A stretch of DNA of 64,000 nt from Nitrospirales bacterium (GTDB lineage Bacteria; Nitrospirota; Nitrospiria; Nitrospirales; UBA8639): positions 3,424,001 through 3,488,000 of the forward strand of contig OY820905.2 in NCBI GenBank assembly GCA_963555755.3, in the 5' to 3' direction. Positions 14,758 through 51,831 of this stretch are shown in pieces. The notes beneath the pieces are model-generated. The model had not been told where the DNA came from, searched no databases, and saw only the letters and a list, made by a program, of their open reading frames with translations. Position 1 is the first letter of the stretch, and the number at the start of each line of letters is the position of its first letter. The position numbers and the translations under genes are program-made.

Positions 14758-14833
14758 GGTAAGGACGGTGGTGTAGGGCAATTTCCAAATCAACTTCCAC
14801 TCGCCCACCAACATTACCCTGATTTTTAATTAT

Positions 14834-15084
14834 GCAGGGTTTCGCCCCTGCAGACGACCTCCTTTTGTTTCGGCAAAAGGAGGCATAACCATTCTTGCCT
14901 GTGCGCGTCCCTCCAGAGAATGGGCTAAAAACGTTCCCATTCTCTTCCAGGTCCCTCCGCTTCCGCCCCGAATAAGATGGCTCAGGAACTCGCGGAGCCT
15001 GTCCTGAGCCTTGTCGAAGGACTCAAACAGCCTTCGCCGAGAAGTCGATTCGGGACTCCAGTTCCGCCGCGCCCAACGCAGGGG
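14834..15084 (+). repeat. Structured repeat, family A, copy 1
   Basis: GCAGGGTTTCGCCCCTGC and CTTTTG-TTTCGG-CAAAAG hairpins. Homologous to copies at 17191, 18465, 45758 and 48526. Confidence 0.85.
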
Positions 15085-15156
15085 AAAGGCAAAGACCTGA
15101 ATGACAATCGAAAAAAATGGTAAGGTGAGTTTACGGATTTGATAGAGGGATGCGTT

Positions 15157-15188
15157 AAAATGTAACAGAATACGACATTCTGTTATAT
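15157..15188. other. Palindromic site ATGTAACAGAAT-N5-ATTCTGTTATAT (candidate recombination or operator site)
   Basis: 11/12 inverted arms. The left part recurs at 17066-17082 (16/17 identical) and a related palindrome lies at 48392-48419. Confidence 0.55.
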
Positions 15189-15275
15189 GGTACTCCCTAT
15201 AAAGGTACTTTGGCAGTGAGACGTCACATGTCGGTGGCCTAGTGATACAATTTGTGAGGCGTCGTACGATTAACC

Positions 15276-15299
15276 GTCCGCTTTCGACCCAAAGCCGAC
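15276..15299. repeat. 24-bp imperfect palindrome GTCCGCTTTCGACCCAAAGCCGAC
   Basis: 19/24 identical to 16959-16982, with degenerate relatives at 16409-16468. Confidence 0.65.
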
Positions 15300-15363
15300 A
15301 TTTTTTTTAACACGCTCAATATGAATGTACTATCTATCGTCCTAAACTGATAATGGAGTAGCT

Positions 15364-16386
15364 ATGCAACTGCTAAGTCCTACACCCGAAAGTGCAAGTC
15401 ATGTACTGCGAGCCGTCGCCACCGTCGCCCGCGCTGCAGATGGCGGGCTAAACCCAACTCACCGTGCAGTCATGGACACAGCCCAGCGGATGCTCTTGAA
15501 GACCGAACTCGATGTCGACGAGCTTGATGAGATCTCACCCGATTCGCTGGCGTCCCGGCTCACGGAACAACCAGAGATCAGCCGACAGGTCATCCGGGCC
15601 ATGGTCTTGATGAGCATGGCCGTCGGTCCACCAAATCCCGCCCAGGTCGAGCTAGTGCTACGATTCGCAGCTGCGCTGGGAGTCGATGAACCGGCAACTC
15701 GCACCATCCAGCATTTGACCGAGCACGATATGCTGTTGTTTCGCTTTGACATATTCCGCCGGGGAAACGCCGGTGACTATGTGCGCGAGCAGTATCGCTC
15801 CCACGGCGGTTTTGTCGGTGTTGCCAAGGCAATTCTCGGTGCTGCGGGCATCCTGCCCGATCCGAAGCTTGCGGCACAGTTCCGAGCCCTTAAGCAGCTG
15901 CCAACCGATACCCTTGGTCATACCTTATATCGTTTCTATACGGCAAAAGGATTCAGCTTTCCCGGTTCCGGTGAGAAACTGAGCTTGCCGCTCGGGGCAT
16001 TATTCCACGATCTCGGCCATATCCTCGGCGGCTACGACACCTCTGTGGAAGGCGAGATGCTTGTGGCTTCCTTCCAGGCAGGCTACCGGCGTACCGAGGA
16101 TGCGTTCTTCACCATATTGTTCGTCGTCGTTGTGCACAGCGCGGGGATAAACCTGACTCCCTTCGAGCTAACGGTACGACTCGGCAGACTCGGAGAGATG
16201 TCTGAGGATATGTTCATCGCAAATCAACGAGGCAGCTCCATGAACACTGATCTTGGCGACGCATGGGATTTCTTGCCGTGGCTGGAGCGGCCGTTGGAGG
16301 AGGCTCGCGAGGAGCTAGGAGTGCCACCGCTATCAAAGCCCCCGAAGTTAGGTGCGCTGGACCTAGGTCTTAACGATTCTACGTAG
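15364..16386 (+). CDS. Hypothetical protein, TerB-like N-terminus plus Coq4-like C-terminal domain
   Basis: L..LP.DTLG and HDLGHILGGYDTSVEGE resemble the Coq4 HDxxH..GY...GE motif. GC-rich codon style differs from flanks. Confidence 0.7.
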   Translation: MQLLSPTPESASHVLRAVATVARAADGGLNPTHRAVMDTAQRMLLKTELDVDELDEISPDSLASRLTEQPEISRQVIRAMVLMSMAVGPPNPAQVELVLRFAAALGVDEPATRTIQHLTEHDMLLFRFDIFRRGNAGDYVREQYRSHGGFVGVAKAILGAAGILPDPKLAAQFRALKQLPTDTLGHTLYRFYTAKGFSFPGSGEKLSLPLGALFHDLGHILGGYDTSVEGEMLVASFQAGYRRTEDAFFTILFVVVVHSAGINLTPFELTVRLGRLGEMSEDMFIANQRGSSMNTDLGDAWDFLPWLERPLEEAREELGVPPLSKPPKLGALDLGLNDST

Positions 16387-16408
16387 CTACGTAAAGGCGT
16401 ATCGGATC

Positions 16409-16468
16409 AACTGCTTTTGGCCGTTTTGAGCCGTTTCGGCCAAGGGTAGAAGGCGACCCATATCCGAC
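16409..16468. repeat. Two degenerate copies of the 24-bp palindrome family between island genes
   Basis: CTGCTTTTGGCCG... and ...CGACCCATATCCGAC. Confidence 0.5.
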
Positions 16469-16489
16469 TTTTTCAGCTAAGTTGCAGAA

Positions 16490-16942
16490 ATGAAAATTAA
16501 ACCGCTTGCTGACCATAAGGAGGTATTACCCATCCTGACCGATTGGTACCTATCGGAGTGGGAACCGTACTATGGAGTTGATGGACCTGGAGATGCACAG
16601 GCAGATCTGGAGTCTCGCTGCAATTATGAAGAGATTCCCATTGGTCTGGTAGCTATCAAGGGAGACCAGGTGTGCGGAACGGTTGCGCTGGATCTCGATG
16701 CAGCCACTAATCTGACACCCTCAATAGTTGGCCTGCTGGTGGGCCGCGCTTATCGAAGAAGAGGCATCGCGGCCGCACTCTTAAAATCGGCTGAAGATCG
16801 CGCGCGCAGGCTTGGTTACAGTCGCGTCTACATGAGCACAACTATCCTGGGCGAGCTACTTAATCGTATGGGATGGGGTAAGTTGGGGGAAGTCGAGTTC
16901 ATGAATAATGAGCGGGGTTGGATTTATGTACGCGACTTTTGA
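16490..16942 (+). CDS. GNAT family N-acetyltransferase
   Basis: LLV...YRRRGIA..LL acetyl-CoA motif A, GW near the C-terminus. Confidence 0.88.
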   Translation: MKIKPLADHKEVLPILTDWYLSEWEPYYGVDGPGDAQADLESRCNYEEIPIGLVAIKGDQVCGTVALDLDAATNLTPSIVGLLVGRAYRRRGIAAALLKSAEDRARRLGYSRVYMSTTILGELLNRMGWGKLGEVEFMNNERGWIYVRDF

Positions 16943-16958
16943 CAATTGACCCTCTCGA

Positions 16959-16982
16959 GTCCGCTTTTGGCCGAAACCGGAC
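16959..16982. repeat. 24-bp imperfect palindrome GTCCGCTTTTGGCCGAAACCGGAC
   Basis: Homologous to 15276-15299, just downstream of the GNAT stop. Confidence 0.65.
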
Positions 16983-17190
16983 ACAATTTGGAGTAATCAA
17001 GATGCATGTCTAACCCGTAAATACAACAGACCCCAAAAAGTAGACGTTGATCTCCAACTTTAGCGAAAATGTAACCGAATACCTGAAAAGGGGACGCTTC
17101 CCTTTCCCGGCCGCATGAATTTGTGGCAAGAAGGAGAATTGAGTTTGTAGGGCCCTCAGTTTTAAAAGTTGGTTTGTTTCTTGAGTGGTT

Positions 17191-17385
17191 CCCCGCCTTT
17201 GTGCGCGGCGGAGCTGGAGTACCGAATCGACTTCTCGGCGAAGGCTGTTTGAGCGGAGCGAGTTCCTGAGCCATCTTGATTCGGTACGGAGGCGGAGGAA
17301 CCCAGCAGGGCCGCGCACAGGTGGAAATGGTTTTGGTCACTTTTGCCGAAACAAAAGTGACTCGTCTGCAGGGGCGAAACCCTGC
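17191..17385 (-). repeat. Structured repeat, family A, copy 2 (inverted)
   Basis: Reverse complement aligns with 14834-15084. Confidence 0.85.
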
Positions 17386-17452
17386 TAGAAATAATTCTTG
17401 CAAATAACCTTGTGCGTCGATTGTAGCCCCAGCTGCTGCTAGATTGCAGCAC

Positions 17453-45144: not shown

Positions 45145-45181
45145 CAATATTGTAGGCATTCGAAGGGGATTCCTGAACTAA

Positions 45182-45338
45182 GGGCTCGCGCAAGAATAAC
45201 TTCCCATTTTGGGGTGACGAGACACCTGTCTGGCAAGGCGCGAGGACTGCGCATACTCTTGGTATGTAAGGGACGAGCAACGCCGCCAGACAGGATGGAT
45301 CGACGCTCAAAGATGGGAAGTTATTCTTGCGTGAGCCC
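45182..45338. mobile_element. MITE family C inserted in the loop of a terminator-like hairpin
   Basis: TAA/TAA flanks, surrounded by GAAGGGGATTCCTG and CAGGAATCCCCTTC. Confidence 0.88.
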
Positions 45339-45388
45339 TAACAGGAATCCCCTTCCTTTGTGAAAGGCTACCCAAGGAAAAAGTCTTT

Positions 45389-45724
45389 ATGGCTGGAACG
45401 GTGATTAGTGTTTCCGACGAGAATTATGAAGAATTTACGCAGGCCCCTGCAGCCATGGTGGCCTATGGTATTGGGTCTTGTCAGCCATGTGCCGAGTATG
45501 ATCCGATTTTAGAATCAGTTGCAGCAAAGTATGCTCATATTCGAATTGGCAAGGCTAAAATGCACGTTCCTGGCCGTTGCCGGGGCATTAAAAAACAGCA
45601 CACCTTTGAAACCTACCCCACCACACACTTCTTTTCAAACGGACAATTGTTATTGACGCGAGAAGGGAAGATTGAAGAGTCGGAACTTGCGACTCTTTTT
45701 CAAGAGCATTTTCCCAATCCTTAA
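45389..45724 (+). CDS. Thioredoxin-like protein
   Basis: CQPC active site, YPT.HFF..G. Confidence 0.82.
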   Translation: MAGTVISVSDENYEEFTQAPAAMVAYGIGSCQPCAEYDPILESVAAKYAHIRIGKAKMHVPGRCRGIKKQHTFETYPTTHFFSNGQLLLTREGKIEESELATLFQEHFPNP

Positions 45725-45757
45725 TCTTTTCCCATTCCCTTGTTGAAAATAATTTTT

Positions 45758-45950
45758 GTGGGGTTTCGTCCCCACGCGACGAGTCACTTTTGTTTCGGCA
45801 AAAGTGACCAAAACCATTTTTGCCTGTGCGCGGAACCACGGGGGACTGGTCCGCCGCCCCGAATCAGGATGGCTCGGAAACTCGCTCCGCTCAAACAGTC
45901 CTCGCCGAAGGGGCCGATTCGGGGCAGCGGCCCAGCCGCGCCCAACGCAG
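45758..45950 (+). repeat. Structured repeat, family A, copy 4
   Basis: GTGGGGTTTCGTCCCCAC and GTCACTTTTGTTTCGGCAAAAGTGAC hairpins. Confidence 0.85.
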
Positions 45951-46124
45951 TGAAAGGGAAATCCTTGAACGACAAATATCAAGAAATGGTCGGGAGCTTT
46001 GCCGATCTGTATAAGAGGATGTGATAACTGGCCAGACGGGGAGGAAGTCGTTGAGTATTAAAGGAATTCACAAACCCTCGACGGGAAATCCCGAAGCGTG
46101 TTATACGGATAGGAACTCAAAGAT

Positions 46125-46161
46125 TCGCATCTTATGCGGATCCATCTAATCATTGTTAGGC
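46125..46161 (+). other. attI-like integron site with core GTTAGGC (46155-46161)
   Basis: GTTRRRY core 24 bp before cassette 1, complementary to the GCCTAAC of attC1. No attC hairpin upstream. Confidence 0.6.
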
Positions 46162-46184
46162 GGTAAGAATATCGAGAACGAAAT

Positions 46185-46691
46185 ATGAGAAAAGTGATTA
46201 CTACTCTATTGTCATTATTTGGTTTAGCTGGTAACGCGGCGGCTTTAGATAATGCTGGAATCTATTTATCTTCCAAGTTTGACTTAACTGTCGCCCAGCT
46301 TTCCAAAATTGCGGTTGGTGCTAAAGTGGAAATGGTCGAAAATAATGAAGGGAATTCATTTCAGGTAAGTTGGCCAGATGTTTCCGTAACTATTAACACA
46401 AAGAACGTGTGGTCTGATCGAACCACCCAGATTAGCGGAATGACAAACTGGGCTAAATCTTTGGGGGGTAATAATTCATCGAGCTTTTTAAACAAAATTG
46501 CTTCCGCCACTGATATATTGGGCTGTGTAATTCAGCCCGGATATGACAAGGAACAAAAAGTGGCTCGCTTGGTTAACGAAATTGCCAAAAGATACGAAGG
46601 TTTTATTTTTACATATCAAAGTTTTTACAATGAGCGGGGGCATAAAATTGTTGGGCAAGCGAATGACCCTCAGAAAGTCGGAGGCGCCTAA
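46185..46691 (+). CDS. Gene cassette 1: hypothetical secreted protein
   Basis: Signal peptide, AT-rich, stop codon inside the attC inverse core. Confidence 0.75.
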   Translation: MRKVITTLLSLFGLAGNAAALDNAGIYLSSKFDLTVAQLSKIAVGAKVEMVENNEGNSFQVSWPDVSVTINTKNVWSDRTTQISGMTNWAKSLGGNNSSSFLNKIASATDILGCVIQPGYDKEQKVARLVNEIAKRYEGFIFTYQSFYNERGHKIVGQANDPQKVGGA

Positions 46692-46771
46692 CAATGCGCT
46701 GCTAGGGACTTGGCAAAGCTTTGCTTGAAAAACAGCAAACCTTTACCATGCCCAAGAGCTTACCGTTGGGC
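46686..46771 (+). other. attC site 1 (86 bp)
   Basis: GCCTAAC ... GTTGGGC. Arms GCT(G)CTAGGG(A)CTTGGCAAAG versus CTTTACCATGCCCAAGAGC, with extrahelical bases. Confidence 0.85.
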
Positions 46772-46791
46772 GGCGTACGGAGGCGGCGTGC

Positions 46792-47592
46792 ATGGACTAC
46801 CCGTTTGAGCACCCTGATTTTCACGGCCGGAACCTTGCTCTTCGCACGTCGGGGTTCTTCGCGTCCGCCCGGTTGGTAGTTGATGGCGCCGAAGTCACTG
46901 CGACCAAAGGGAAGTTCGCCCTACACGACAATCAGGGACGCCCTCGGGAGCTCAAGCTCAAGGCGGGTTTTCTTGATCCGGTTCCGAAGGTAGTTCTCGA
47001 CGACACCACAATCGCTCTAGTCAGCCCTCTCAAATGGTACGAGTACGCATGGATGGCACTACCCATCGTGCTCGTGTTTAGCGGTGGTGCGCTGGGTGCT
47101 CTATTCGGAATTACTGCCGCGTATTCAAGCACTCGTATATTCAGAAGCGATCGTGGCGCCGCGGCCAAGTACCTCCTCTCCGGACTCGCTTCCATTGGCG
47201 CAGTTGCAGGGTTTCTGGCGAGTGCGACCGCCCTGCAACTTCTGATCTCCTGGAACACGGACCCCTCATCCGAGAAGGCCCTCGACGAAGTTGCTCGAGC
47301 CTCCAACAAGGAGCTGCCGATGATGATCGACGACCAGACCGAGTTAGTGAAGCTCGAGGGTCTCGAGGGTGTGCTCGTCTACCACTATCGCCTCACGACG
47401 ATCGCGCCGGGCCAAATTTCAGGCGAGGCGCTGGTACAGCGGCTTCGCCCGACAATCTCTGCGAACGCCTGTGCCCACGACGAGAGCAGGGAGCGATTCC
47501 TCGATAATGGCATTGCGCTTCGCTACGCCTACAGCGACGCGGAGGGCGGGACCATTGGTGCGTTCGACGTCTCTGCCAACGACTGCCTCTAA
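46792..47592 (+). CDS. Gene cassette 2: hypothetical membrane protein
   Basis: GGAGG RBS, TM segments, C-terminal N..LP.MID..T domain, GC-rich unlike adjacent cassettes. Confidence 0.78.
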   Translation: MDYPFEHPDFHGRNLALRTSGFFASARLVVDGAEVTATKGKFALHDNQGRPRELKLKAGFLDPVPKVVLDDTTIALVSPLKWYEYAWMALPIVLVFSGGALGALFGITAAYSSTRIFRSDRGAAAKYLLSGLASIGAVAGFLASATALQLLISWNTDPSSEKALDEVARASNKELPMMIDDQTELVKLEGLEGVLVYHYRLTTIAPGQISGEALVQRLRPTISANACAHDESRERFLDNGIALRYAYSDAEGGTIGAFDVSANDCL

Positions 47593-47665
47593 CAACGGTT
47601 CTTTGATGGCGTCGCGTTGGCCAGGCAGCATCCGCGCGGAGGTTCGCGCAGGCCGAGGCCCAGCC

Positions 47666-47795
47666 GCCCAACAAGGGCTTGCAGCGGACCGGCTCACGCT
47701 TTGAGCGAGGCAGACCGTGTTAGAATGCGAGATCTTCTAGCGCTTCAGCCTCGGTGGCAGAGCGCCGCCGGCCGCTGAAGCCCGATCCGCTAGGC
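47666..47795 (+). other. attC site 2 (130 bp)
   Basis: GCCCAAC (complement of the cassette-start GTTGGGC) ... GCTAGGC. GGGCTT(G)CAGCGG(A)CCGGC pairs with GCCGGCCGCTGAAGCCC. Confidence 0.88.
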
Positions 47796-47811
47796 ATGTA
47801 AAAGGAAAGAA

Positions 47812-48276
47812 ATGCAGATAATCAAAAAAATACTCATTGGACTTGGTGTTGTGTTCGCATTATTTATTGGGTTCGTAATATTCATGTTTGGAGAGTCTGG
47901 TGATTTCAAAGAAAATAATGAACAGCTAGTCAGAGAGTATACTCAAAAGTTTAGTCAAAACTGGAGCATTAGTAGTGTTAGTGATCTCAGTACGAATGAT
48001 CTATTGTCCCAAATCACCACTCCAAATGGACAACATTCGTTAAGGCAATTTCAATCATTCGGAAAACTAGTGGAAATCGAAGATATTGAGATAAGTAACT
48101 ACAACACATCCACGGGAGCTGGAACTACCGGTGTGTTCAAATTTAAGGCAAAGTTTGAAAATTTAAATGCTTTGGTTACGGTGACGGTTCGTGAAAAGGA
48201 TAGTGTAGCAAAGGTTCATGGTTTCCACATTGATCCGCTGAGCGAGGTATCTCCACCGAAGGAATTTAATATCTAA
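47812..48276 (+). CDS. Gene cassette 3: hypothetical membrane-anchored protein
   Basis: AAGGA RBS, N-terminal TM, AT-rich, stop codon in the attC inverse core. Confidence 0.78.
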   Translation: MQIIKKILIGLGVVFALFIGFVIFMFGESGDFKENNEQLVREYTQKFSQNWSISSVSDLSTNDLLSQITTPNGQHSLRQFQSFGKLVEIEDIEISNYNTSTGAGTTGVFKFKAKFENLNALVTVTVREKDSVAKVHGFHIDPLSEVSPPKEFNI

Positions 48277-48386
48277 TCAGAGGTTGCAGCCGACCCAAAA
48301 CCCGCCACTTCGTTTTTCGCGTTGCTGTGCTCCATTTTCCCAAAAAAAAGCGTTGTATTTTGCGGGGCTGAACCTAAGCGTTAGAG
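48271..48386 (+). other. attC site 3 (116 bp, degenerate)
   Basis: ATCTAAT ... GTTAGAG. AGGTT(G)CAGCC pairs with GGCTGAACCT. Confidence 0.7.
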
Positions 48387-48391
48387 CAAAA

Positions 48392-48419
48392 ATGTAACGG
48401 AATGCCAATACGGTTACAT
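48392..48419. other. Palindromic site ATGTAACGGAAT-N4-ATACGGTTACAT
   Basis: 10/12 inverted arms, homologous to 15160-15188. Confidence 0.55.
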
Positions 48420-48525
48420 GGAACCTGCCATTTCCTCGTGAAAACCCCTTAAACATTGGCTATTGAGTTTTAATTGGGTTTGCCTTTTACAACTCTAGTT
48501 TACTTGATTCGTTTCTTAAGTATTT

Positions 48526-48848
48526 CCTCCGCCTTCGGGCGCGGCGGAGCCGCAGCCCCGAATCGACCGCTTTGGCGAAGGCTGTTTGAGCGCAGCGAGT
48601 TCCTGAGCCATCTTATTCGGGGCGGAGGCGGAGGGACCCGGAAGAGAATGATCAAAACGTTCGTCAGCGGCGTTCTCGGCCCTTTGCCGTGCTCACGTAC
48701 TTAACGGTCACGCTGCGCGCGCCAAAGCGCCTGCGGCCTTGCTGACGAACGTTTTGATCATTCTCTGTAGGGCCGCGCACGGGTGGAAATGGTTTTGGGC
48801 ACTTTTGCCGAAACAAAAGTGTCTCGTCGCGCGGGGGCGAAACCCTGC
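48526..48848 (-). repeat. Structured repeat, family A, copy 5 (inverted), with nested B-core element at 48643-48766
   Basis: The insert has 26-bp perfect arms AGAGAATGATCAAAACGTTCGTCAGC. Confidence 0.85.
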
Positions 48849-48951
48849 ATCTAATAATTCTGGAAAATAATATTGCATGGGGGGAGATCTCTCGTTCTGC
48901 TCGAGACAAGGATTTCTCCCAAGGGTCGAAATGACAGAAGGAAAAACAGTG

Positions 48952-49767
48952 TCAGGAAACGATAATAGGAGTCCCCGTGTATTCCACACGGGTTTCATGC
49001 TGATTGTGAATGGTGATTTTTGCTAAATGTCCGCCTGAAATCGGTTCGAGCAATGGCCAGAGCGTTTGTGCCAAGGTGAGGAGGGTGGTGGGTTGGGATT
49101 GAAAGGCTGGATCTTGAGATAGGTCTTTTCCATTGAATCGGTCGAGTAGATGTTGGTGAACGAGATTGTCTAAAACGGCAATATCAGTCACCCGTCCAGT
49201 GGCTGGGTCGATGGTTCCAGCGACTGACACATCAACGAAAATGTGAGATCCCAGAGTTTGTATTGCATCGGCTGAAGAATTGATGTCCAGGGAATAGCGT
49301 CGGGTAATTTGTGCTTCGGAGGGTTCCGAATAGTCCGATGTGGAATCGGAAGATCCAGTGGTGTCTGGTGTGGCGAGTTCAGCCCACAGGTCTTCGCCTT
49401 CCGATAAACGAATGGTGTGGAGGTCCTGCGTCTCGGGTCGAGCACGAAATTTTCGCCAAAGCACCAAAGCGAAATTTTCCGTGGTCGGTATCGCGTGTTC
49501 GAAATAGGGTGTGTCCAAGTTCAAATGTTTATGGTCGAATTCTTCGAGGACGTCGGTGACAATGTGCTTAAGGTCGTACAGGTTGATGATCATGCCCGTA
49601 ACTGGATCTACTCTTCCACTCAGAGTCACTTCTAAGAGATAGTTGTGCCCATGCTCCTGATAGCAGGCGCCAAATGTCTGTCGATTCTTGTCAGCATCCC
49701 AATCGGGATTACGATAAAAATGCGAGGCTGAAAATTCTATCCGCTTAGTGAGTGTTGATTTTGGCAT
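48952..49767 (-). CDS. 6-carboxytetrahydropterin synthase-like (QueD/PTPS), tandem domain
   Basis: FSASH...C...HGHNY.LEV, DHKHLN, TTEN, plus a degenerate second T-fold repeat. Confidence 0.85.
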   Translation of the reverse strand: MPKSTLTKRIEFSASHFYRNPDWDADKNRQTFGACYQEHGHNYLLEVTLSGRVDPVTGMIINLYDLKHIVTDVLEEFDHKHLNLDTPYFEHAIPTTENFALVLWRKFRARPETQDLHTIRLSEGEDLWAELATPDTTGSSDSTSDYSEPSEAQITRRYSLDINSSADAIQTLGSHIFVDVSVAGTIDPATGRVTDIAVLDNLVHQHLLDRFNGKDLSQDPAFQSQPTTLLTLAQTLWPLLEPISGGHLAKITIHNQHETRVEYTGTPIIVS

Positions 49768-50507: not shown

Positions 50508-51831
50508 CACTAGTGTCCGGTAAAAGTGACCAACACCCGCGCTAACTCCCTGTTCTAACAAAGGAAATCACGATTTAATGGGTGTTACCGATTTCGATTG
50601 TGAAAAATGCTGTGCTGAGGCACTCTCCGATATTTGGGGGGCACACCATGCACGAGGGGCAACTCATTTTTTCACAAGTCACCGATCATTTACCCCTGCA
50701 CACCTTTCGTCGATCTGTTCAGCGTTATCAAGGCGAACGCTATGTGAAGCAGTTCCGTTGTCTCGATCAGTACCTGGTCATGGCGTTTGCACAGTTGACC
50801 TATCGCGAAAGTCTTCGCGATATCGAAGCCTGTCTTCGTGCTCACCAAACCAAACTCTATCATATGGGGATTCGCACCACGATTTCCCGGAGCACCCTGG
50901 CCGAGGCCAACGAACAACGAGATTGGCGAATTTATGCCGACTTCGCTCAGGCCTTGATCCAGCTGGCCCGTCCCTTGTATGCCAAAGAGGACTTGGGGCT
51001 CGATCTCAACCATACCGTGTACGCGCTCGATGCCTCCACTATCGATCTCTGCCTGTCTCTTTTTCCCTGGGCACGGTTTCGTTCCACCAAGTCCGCCGTG
51101 AAACTCCATACCCTGCTCGATTTACGCGGCAATATTCCGACCTTTATCCATATCTCGGACGGCAAGCTTCACGACGTCAATGTTCTCGATATCCTTCTGC
51201 CAGAGCCTGGAGCATTCTATATCATGGATCGAGGGTATCTGGACTTCGAGCGACTGTTCACCCTCACGCAATCGGGAACATTTTTCGTCATTCGAGCCAA
51301 GAGCAATACGCAGTACAAACGGCAATACTCCCATGCCATCGACAAAGCTCATGGGTTGCGATGCGATCAGACAATCGTGCTGACTGGAGCCAATACCAAG
51401 CACGCCTATCCTCAGCCATTGCGACGAGTCAAATACCACGACAGCAAGACCGACAAGACGTTCAACTTTCTCACCAACAACTTTGCCACGCCGGCACAAA
51501 CCGTCGCCGATCTCTATCGCTATCGCTGGCAAGTGGAGCTCTTTTTTAAATGGATCAAACAGCATCTCAGAATCAAATCGTTTTTTGGCACCTCCGAGAA
51601 TGCCGTCAAGAGCCAGATCTGGATCGCCATCTCGATCTATGTGCTGGTGGCAATCATCAAAAAACGACTCGATCTCAAGGCAGACCTCTACACAATTTTA
51701 CAGGTGTTGAGCCTGACCCTGTTTGAGAAAATTCCATTGAATCAACTCCTTACGGATAAGCGCTACAATGAGGCGGCCTATGCCATGTGCAACCAATTGA
51801 ATTTGTTCGATAATTTAACCGGACAGTAGTG
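50508..51831 (+). mobile_element. IS4-family insertion sequence (1324 bp)
   Basis: TIRs CACTAGTGTCCGGTAAA / TTTAACCGGACAGTAGTG, 9-bp TSD GAAAAAAAT. Confidence 0.93.
50648..51829 (+). CDS. IS4-family transposase (DUF4372 plus DDE_Tnp_1)
   Basis: FAQLTYRESLRDIE, ALDAS.I, MDRGY, Y..RWQVELFFKWIKQ (YREK motif). Confidence 0.93.
   Translation: MHEGQLIFSQVTDHLPLHTFRRSVQRYQGERYVKQFRCLDQYLVMAFAQLTYRESLRDIEACLRAHQTKLYHMGIRTTISRSTLAEANEQRDWRIYADFAQALIQLARPLYAKEDLGLDLNHTVYALDASTIDLCLSLFPWARFRSTKSAVKLHTLLDLRGNIPTFIHISDGKLHDVNVLDILLPEPGAFYIMDRGYLDFERLFTLTQSGTFFVIRAKSNTQYKRQYSHAIDKAHGLRCDQTIVLTGANTKHAYPQPLRRVKYHDSKTDKTFNFLTNNFATPAQTVADLYRYRWQVELFFKWIKQHLRIKSFFGTSENAVKSQIWIAISIYVLVAIIKKRLDLKADLYTILQVLSLTLFEKIPLNQLLTDKRYNEAAYAMCNQLNLFDNLTGQ

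Follow-up and report, generated by a model that had tools for sequence, protein, structure and literature searches.

A three-cassette array headed by an attI site, bracketed by repeats and lacking an integrase gene in a Nitrospirales chromosome

We analysed a 64,000-nucleotide stretch of the chromosome of a Nitrospirales bacterium (the window, G000:C1:3424001-3488000; the source genome, G000, comprises 4.62 Mb and is 99% complete), in which an original prediction made from the sequence alone had proposed an integron array without an integrase gene (intI), consisting of an attI-like site, three cassettes and three attC sites. Every motif of that proposal was found in place. The attI core GTTAGGC (46155-46161) is followed by three co-oriented open reading frames (ORFs), each succeeded by its own attC site. 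Cassette 1 (46156..46765, plus strand; 610 bp) ends in an inverse core, GCCTAAC, that complements the attI junction GTTAGGC exactly, cassette 2 occupies 46766..47789 (plus strand; 1024 bp), and in cassette 3 (47790..48380, plus strand; 591 bp) the cassette's two core ends both depart from consensus. In cassettes 1 and 2, by comparison, the inverse core complements the cassette's own 5′ end over all seven bases. The predicted alternation of AT-rich, GC-rich and AT-rich cassettes is borne out by G+C contents of 41.5, 61.1 and 39.8%, compared with 50.9% for the contig. Judged by their sequence organisation these are real integron cassettes, and none of the three was found elsewhere in the source genome.

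The recombining hairpins of all three attC sites lie on the bottom (minus) strand. attC1 (46686-46771; 86 nt, GCCTAAC..GTTGGGC) and attC2 (47666-47795; 130 nt, GCCCAAC..GCTAGGC), the latter of the long class with an 8-nt R′-L′ spacer, are joined by attC3 (48271-48386; 116 nt, ATCTAAT..GTTAGAG), whose inverse core reads AAT in place of AAC. A covariance model was trained on 16 attC sites, all from outside the window; 92% of the cells in its alignment were paired, versus 26–36% when the partners were slid. An unfiltered search of the 64 kb with this model returned four matches at E≤1, namely attC2 (E 8.9e-10), attC1 (E 1.5e-5) and attC3 (E 2.4e-3), all on the bottom strand and within 1.7 kb, and one further match at E 0.68. 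In agreement, a structural scan of both strands of the 4.6-Mb contig yielded 16 hits, three of them within 1.7 kb at the array, and 4, 2 and 6 hits were obtained in three shuffled genomes; the clustering of hits at the array is not due to chance. Bottom-strand folding was clear for attC1 (z −3.33) and attC2 (z −3.0, for a stretch one base short) and weak for attC3 (z −0.84), which is the weakest of the three sites. When the model was applied genome-wide, with 150 of 1044 candidates scored, attC3 was missing from the 13 hits, all of which lie downstream of one of the genome's attI sites and seven of which are training sequences. An Rfam search of 44–51 kb gave no match at E≤1. At the array attC sites, the R″-L″...L′-R′ boxes pair into a hairpin on the bottom strand, in which one base of L″ is extrahelical. 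The extrahelical G that had been predicted is present on the top strand, but the recombining bottom strand carries a C at this position, where a G is usual (PMC5027507); the same C variant occurs at the four attC sites directly behind the intI gene of the source genome. That the sites can act as substrates of an integrase (IntI) is indirectly suggested by cassette 2, which recurs with the same 5′ boundary in other arrays. An additional attC site right after ORF2, where CTCTAAC lies at the stop codon, was considered and rejected: it is unfolded (z 0.11 and 0.56) and has no model match, and homologous cassettes share the same tail of about 75 nt without the CTCTAAC motif.

One off-consensus core letter each is found at attC2, whose core is GCT where same-class sites in the loci L153–L155 have GTT, and at attC3. 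Both letters fall in cassette 3, and the prediction had taken them as a sign that the distal cassette is becoming immobilised. The deviations are real and immobilisation is plausible as a trend, but it is not established. In published assays, an attC carrying a GCT core reached 0.15 and 0.48 of the normal recombination level when paired with wild-type attI1, a two- to sixfold drop (PMC2811028, Table 4), so the GCT core would slow rather than stop recombination; this comparison is an analogy only, drawn for the GCT core, as it concerns IntI1 and had the complementary base changed too. The lack of an intact intI in the genome acts as the stronger brake.

The cargo is predicted to consist of three cell-envelope proteins. 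Hydropathy, inspection of ORF1 by eye and structure models support the earlier impression that all products look exported or membrane-bound. ORF1 (46185..46691, plus strand; 168 aa) has an N-terminus that is signal-peptide-like by eye, no Pfam match or assigned family, and a single homologue (54%). ORF2 (46792..47592, plus strand; 266 aa) combines a beta-rich N-domain and two hydrophobic helices with a C-domain that is predicted to adopt an AspS/EpsS pilotin / PA3611 fold (structure model pLDDT 88; Foldseek E 5.9e-6 to 1.2e-4). ORF3 (47812..48276, plus strand; 154 aa) has, according to hydropathy, an N-terminal membrane anchor and carries a probable NTF2-like domain: the best Foldseek rows for its model were NTF2-like, none of them at E≤0.001, and a DUF3887 match was weak and below the cut-off (E 0.0067). 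PADLOC gave no match for the three proteins and the protein Atlas no result for ORF1 or ORF2. Homologues in other integrons were obtained for cassette 2, for which seven loci were examined. At three of them it starts at the same 5′ boundary behind other attC sites, with nucleotide identities of 87–88% in the metagenomic arrays L153 and L154 and 74% in a third array; the other four have no visible attC. An agreement of 72% with the foreign-array copies at fourfold-degenerate sites, together with the unameliorated G+C content of 61%, suggests that cassette 2 was acquired recently. Contigs of RNA run X8, which may derive from DNA, cover cassette 2, a peroxiredoxin gene and most of the upstream thioredoxin gene with 0 differences and leave cassettes 1 and 3 uncovered; run X9, of a kind that is not known, showed a similar coverage pattern, and such contigs cannot prove transcription.

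Sequence comparison identifies the site in front of cassette 1 as a genuine attI, as the prediction had suspected. The attI region (45988..46157, plus strand; core GTT at 46155-46157) is of the type found in integrons with a co-oriented intI, and about 170 bp before the core are homologous to seven further places in the source genome, giving eight attI regions. A 27-letter pattern from the region matched 25 GTDB loci, and most of the titled records with the motif are from Nitrospirota. The homologue lies 170–180 bp 3′ of a full-length co-oriented intI in three of these loci (L103, L108 and L122) and behind a partial intI in four; in the other 18, of which five have less than 400 bp of upstream contig, no intI was seen before attI. 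In four sediment metagenomes, the summed contig depth on attI runs to hundreds until the core is reached and drops below five within ten bases after it, with mixed loose ends at 46157-46163, which indicates that many different sequences start at the attI crossover. Variable cassettes begin exactly at the GTT core of the attI copies, and we infer that the crossover lies between 46155 and 46156. The core is conserved in an alignment of 43 copies, which also shows TTATRCGG-like motifs at about −150, −55 and −24, in the window at about 45997-46017, 46100 and 46131. By analogy with attI1, the sequence of which appears in the primers of PMC2811028 and has a different spacing, these motifs may represent accessory integrase sites.

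The attI copy of the window has no adjacent intI. As had been predicted, no intI lies upstream of the array, where a repeat of about 235 bp and a thioredoxin gene are found instead. A profile search of the source genome gave a single match over the TIGR02249 cut-off, at C1:318997-319857 and thus far from the array at C1:3470 kb. This gene lacks profile positions 1–27 and abuts the end of an IS3-type insertion sequence (IS), and its missing 5′ part was not found elsewhere in the genome. It is followed by a different attI type, of which an orphan copy lies at C1:309.4 kb. The possibility that an intact intI of the source genome serves the array at present was therefore rejected, and the array is probably dormant now, since the only intI is truncated by an IS. 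In front of the attI copies at 325 and 332 kb lie two C-terminal IntI stubs that belong to the cognate type, and the better one is 89–91% identical over 57 aa to two of the integrases next to attI homologues. A match over the TIGR02249 cut-off was present in five of 41 genomes, including the congener G002 with an open full-length frame. The congener G003 (98% complete) has no intI match over the family cut-off, yet it has nine attI matches. Without an intact intI next to attI, the array is not a complete integron; with at least two clustered attC sites on one strand and no intI nearby (4–10 kb), it is a cluster of attC sites lacking an integron-integrase (CALIN) under the published definition (PMC4889954), which is how it had first been classified.

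The main integron region of the source genome (G000:C1:309000-340000; L009, L010) is torn by IS elements. It contains the 5′-truncated intI with four cassettes and the orphan same-type attI at 309.4 kb with two cassettes, and also holds three copies of the window's attI type. Elements of about 170 bp with GGGGTCA/TGACCCC-type ends lie directly before intI stubs or attI (C1:323.7, 325.2, 329.4 and 332.4 kb; G002:C39 5785-6731, L087). Their ends resemble those before the genome's Y1 transposases of about 300 aa, and G002 has a Y1 transposase gene immediately next to an intI stub; it may be that intI is targeted and deleted by these elements.

Two features escaped the original prediction: the site is one member of a family of orphan attI regions present in several copies, and an inverted partner of the upstream repeat follows shortly downstream, which makes the repeats part of the structure. 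The left arm (45740..45967, plus strand; outer terminal hairpin at 45758-45775) is a copy of a structured, non-coding, dispersed repeat of about 235 bp, 134 copies or fragments of which occur in the source genome, and the right arm (48507..48870, minus strand) is an inverted copy. An A/T-rich tract precedes the terminal hairpin of the arms, where neither a GTAG nor a CGTC tag is present. The last core is followed, on the way to the right arm, by a conserved 3′ segment (48381..48520, plus strand), about 135 bp of which are common to units in four genomes (79–86% identical in the units of G002, G003 and G006, and present once more in G000). We surveyed 25 attI copies from five congeneric genomes, 24 of them with enough upstream sequence. 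In 18 of the 24, an arm on the same strand ends no more than 700 bp from the core, versus 0.9% of random positions in the source genome, and an inverted arm followed within 4 kb downstream in 15 of the 16 arm-bearing copies with downstream sequence. Most units of G003 have a gene behind attI whose attC is no longer detectable. In a second genus, 19 of 50 genomes matched the attI query. The arm repeat is not specific to integrons, as it also flanks toxin-antitoxin genes and others on both sides, and in a third genus most copies stand alone. A search for the arm in viral contigs gave no hits.

Several further observations concern this repeat. In the source genome it often brackets small toxin-antitoxin-like gene pairs, and collapsed inverted arm pairs of about 110 bp are found at positions that harbour a complete attI unit in relatives. 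The right arm of the array contains a nested hairpin element of about 125 bp with a perfect 26-bp inverted repeat (48643-48766), which is skipped in related contigs. An element of about 2.58 kb containing a 792-aa ORF interrupts the arm repeat at one and the same position (about 117) in at least five copies (G000:C1:575.9, 1962.2, 3276.8, 3296.4 and 3637.3 kb). The window contains a second inverted arm pair at 14819-17407, with two ORFs and no attI; in G003 and G006, an attI unit occupies the orthologous bay. At G000:C1:1013240 (L014), an attI copy lies between two same-strand arms with no cassette or attC behind it and is a candidate for an empty docking site.

Comparison of the chromosomal site between relatives revealed a turnover of cargo. 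Outside the element, the neighbouring genes encode a thioredoxin-fold protein on the left (45389..45724, plus strand; Pfam PF00085, E 2.6e-7), conserved in relatives, and a two-domain PTPS/QueD-like protein on the right (48952..49761, minus strand; Pfam PF01242, synteny). These two genes adjoin each other at the empty orthologous site, as seen in G004 and G011. In G002 the site carries a collapsed arm pair and a HicAB-like pair (named by eye), and in G003 the same arm, attI, 3′ segment and arm enclose one unrelated HNH-like cassette with its own attC; no cassette is common to G000 and G003 at this shared integrase-less platform. Between these two genomes, attI is 90–92%, the 3′ segment 82% and the arms 82–87% identical at the site, and 194 of 453 fourfold-degenerate sites (43%) agree in six flanking genes. 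If rates are comparable, the 43% agreement between the hosts against 72% for cassette 2 implies that cassette 2 is younger than the integrase-less platform and would then have arrived in trans. When eight unit sites of G003 were mapped onto G000, two carried attI, three had arms with other cargo, one a collapsed pair, one was empty and one was not syntenic. Two other insertions are seen near the site: a 160-bp element (45179-45340), bounded by inverted repeats of 40 bp and matched hundreds of times across the genome, which is cleanly skipped in related metagenome contigs and is thus recently mobile, and a DDE transposase insertion (DUF4372 + DDE_Tnp_1; 50582-51829) that is absent from the aligned regions of G002, G003 and G004.

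Evidence that the platform itself moves comes from a FastTree phylogeny of 82 arms. The left arms of the G000 unit, its G003 orthologue, a unit on contig C25 of G002 and a G003 unit at 2509 kb form one clade (support 0.89). The C25 unit lies 8.5 kb from the collapsed site of G002, and its arm is also the best G002 match to the left arm of the window (3 of 125 candidates scored). There is no arm in G000 at the sites of the C25 and 2509-kb units, and units at different chromosomal sites share a homologous linker between arm and attI. Copying of whole units and recombination between arms probably both play a part, and movement of the platform is less certain than turnover of the cargo at the site.

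Starting from the three attC sites, the identified attI, the missing intI, the bracketing repeats, the multiple copies per genome and the different cassettes behind the same attI, we favour, with a probability of roughly 0.6, the explanation that the locus is a repeat-bracketed, integrase-less three-cassette array headed by an attI, likely loaded in trans and likely copied to chromosomal sites together with its repeat. We propose that a co-oriented integron lost its intI by a deletion up to a neighbouring repeat, leaving a repeat-attI-3′ segment-repeat platform, which some enzyme, or else recombination between repeats, would then have duplicated or moved. A trans-acting IntI would recombine the folded bottom strands of attC sites with the G|TT core of attI, so that cassette 3 would have been gained first, then cassette 2 and then cassette 1. 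The integrase genes of the source genome would since have been broken, and the array would probably stay dormant until an integrase is re-acquired. The recombination at attI in this scheme is proposed from comparisons of nucleotide sequence.

A number of observations weigh against this explanation. The metagenome contigs leave the intI adjacency of their attI copies unseen, and a scan for sigma-70 consensus promoters gave one site versus 2.7 expected, none of them in the attI region. The 0.9% background for arms spans all positions and not only intergenic DNA, and the relatives in the survey are not independent. A close arm is missing at six of the 24 attI copies (three main-locus copies, one copy separated from the arm by an IS, one preceded by an intI that a stop has broken, and one located within an array), the distance from arm to core varies from 82 to 395 bp, and in the second genus an arm was found within 1 kb at only about six of 20 inspected loci; two of the 20 have intI stubs. 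The loss of attC in most G003 units points to decay. In the arm tree, the clade leaves out five further left arms that belong to the same attI subtype, and the grouping of right arms does not mirror the cargo. Visual inspection of three units, one of them incompletely, revealed no convincing target-site duplication; empty sites exist, but in species that are about 75–80% identical. An arm-bracketed Y1 transposase was found among none of 17 hits in G000 and none of 16 in G002, G005 and G006, and a search of G003 gave no Y1 hit, the searched drafts being incomplete; among these 33 Y1 hits from four genomes there was no cognate gene for a REP-associated tyrosine transposase (RAYT) flanked by the arm repeat. 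Finally, the argument from cassette age assumes similar synonymous rates in cassettes and hosts.

The best-surviving alternative, which we consider unlikely, is that the orphan attI copies are independent relics, each a once-complete integron that was inserted at its site, loaded in cis and then deprived of its intI, with repeats merely accumulating in the same dispensable intergenic gaps. Loss of intI is among the listed origins of CALINs (PMC4889954), and stubs of the gene do precede some attI copies (two at the main locus, two of 20 loci in the second genus and four of 25 GTDB loci); but no intI remnant was noted before any inspected copy of the window's attI subtype. The variable arm-attI spacing, the several arms that are not monophyletic and a repeat that is mostly solo in another genus and brackets other cargo would all fit such accumulation, whereas a linker that is homologous at different chromosomal sites would not. 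Independent relics would also require eight to nine separate integron insertions in single genomes, and they sit poorly with G000 and G003 sharing an integrase-less platform, with no cassette in common, and with a cassette 2 that looks younger than the split.

Even less probable, in our view, is an exchange of cargo by homologous recombination, in which arm pairs form long-lived bays that swap ready-loaded arrays; the double crossovers would fall either within the arms or within the attI region and the 3′ segment, and no integrase would act at the site. Replacement of class 1 integron arrays through conserved flanks has been described (PMC3575428), and the mosaic nature of the arms, the different cargo of orthologous arm pairs, which includes non-cassette genes, and the 98% identity over 111 bp between the window attI and a copy at another site in a close relative are all in line with such exchange. 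However, the donor would still have had to be loaded at an attI of the same subtype, none of which was seen with an intI, two unit-bearing sites are entirely without arms in G000, and the three cassettes occur nowhere else in G000. We give very little credit to the idea that the integrase spread attI itself, as attI-bearing circles (from attI x attI recombination or truncated-attI cassettes) integrated at secondary sites beside the repeat: attI-bounded cassettes are functional with IntI1 (PMC12901181) and one attI copy lies inside an array after an attC (G002:C9), but the left junctions vary without a shared GTT-type crossover and the arm moves with attI in one clade.

Beyond the trans-loaded, repeat-copied array that we favour, a broader reading, less likely than not, is that of a distributed integron in Nitrospirales, in which a mobile, repeat-bounded and integrase-free attI module would provide many docking sites for one occasional integrase acting in trans, and the cargo would become fixed by decay of attC. 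If this were true, a hidden share of CALINs would be active receivers and not leftovers. CALINs are common, and their origin and activity are an open question; four possible origins have been listed, and attI is not searchable in most integrons (PMC4889954). Here the attI is identified, multi-copy and far more conserved than neutral DNA, and it is followed by different cassettes at the same site in sister species, so that the gain of cassettes in trans by integrase-less arrays becomes directly testable. The platforms offer a possible route for scattering and fixing integron cargo across the chromosome, and the new attI sequence family can be used for integron detection.

Parallels to parts of this organisation exist in known systems. 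MITE- and IMU-flanked class 1 integrons (miniature inverted-repeat transposable elements and integron mobilization units; PMC3575428) likewise consist of an integron fragment between two non-coding repeats of 200–400 bp and need a transposase in trans, and the arm tree gives indirect support to such whole-unit transposition here. The likeness is confined to layout: the arms are divergent (about 75–87% identical) and belong to an abundant chromosomal family, and the array is chromosomal, with no intI, no resistance genes and no target duplication seen. The arms resemble repetitive extragenic palindromic (REP) sequences, REPINs and TIRtrons (PMC3733652) in being abundant, structured and intergenic, in having an imperfect hairpin at the end and in frequently forming inverted pairs; unlike REP/REPIN sequences, they are about 235 bp long, lack a GTAG or CGTC tag before the hairpin and have no arm-bracketed Y1 transposase among the hits described above. 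Integrons with a co-oriented ('inverted') intI, described in Treponema (PMC3607928, PMC4889954), share the location of attI 3′ of an intI that is transcribed towards the array, a likeness of layout; here the intI is absent, a repeat takes its place and attI is multi-copy. As in other CALINs, there are three attC sites with no intI nearby, a small array and cargo without an assigned function; two CALINs have been reported in one Nitrospira genome (PMC9024848). CALINs have been characterised as open to mobilisation in trans (PMC9668308; bioRxiv 10.1101/2025.06.18.660453) and have been reported at conserved loci in Xanthomonas, where the consulted part of the report does not mention attI sites heading them (bioRxiv 10.1101/2025.06.18.660453); the consulted sections of PMC9229058 and PMC10579370 contain nothing on attI-headed CALINs either. 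IntegronFinder is blind to attI sites outside class 1–3 integrons (PMC4889954, PMC9024848), and in the open-access literature, with most subscription journals outside its scope, our search met no account of multi-copy orphan attI platforms between repeats. Unlike a plain CALIN, the array has kept a conserved attI and can in principle receive cassettes as well as donate them, and it is one of many such platforms per genome. By itself the array is an ordinary CALIN; what is new is the repeat-bracketed orphan attI platform on which it stands.

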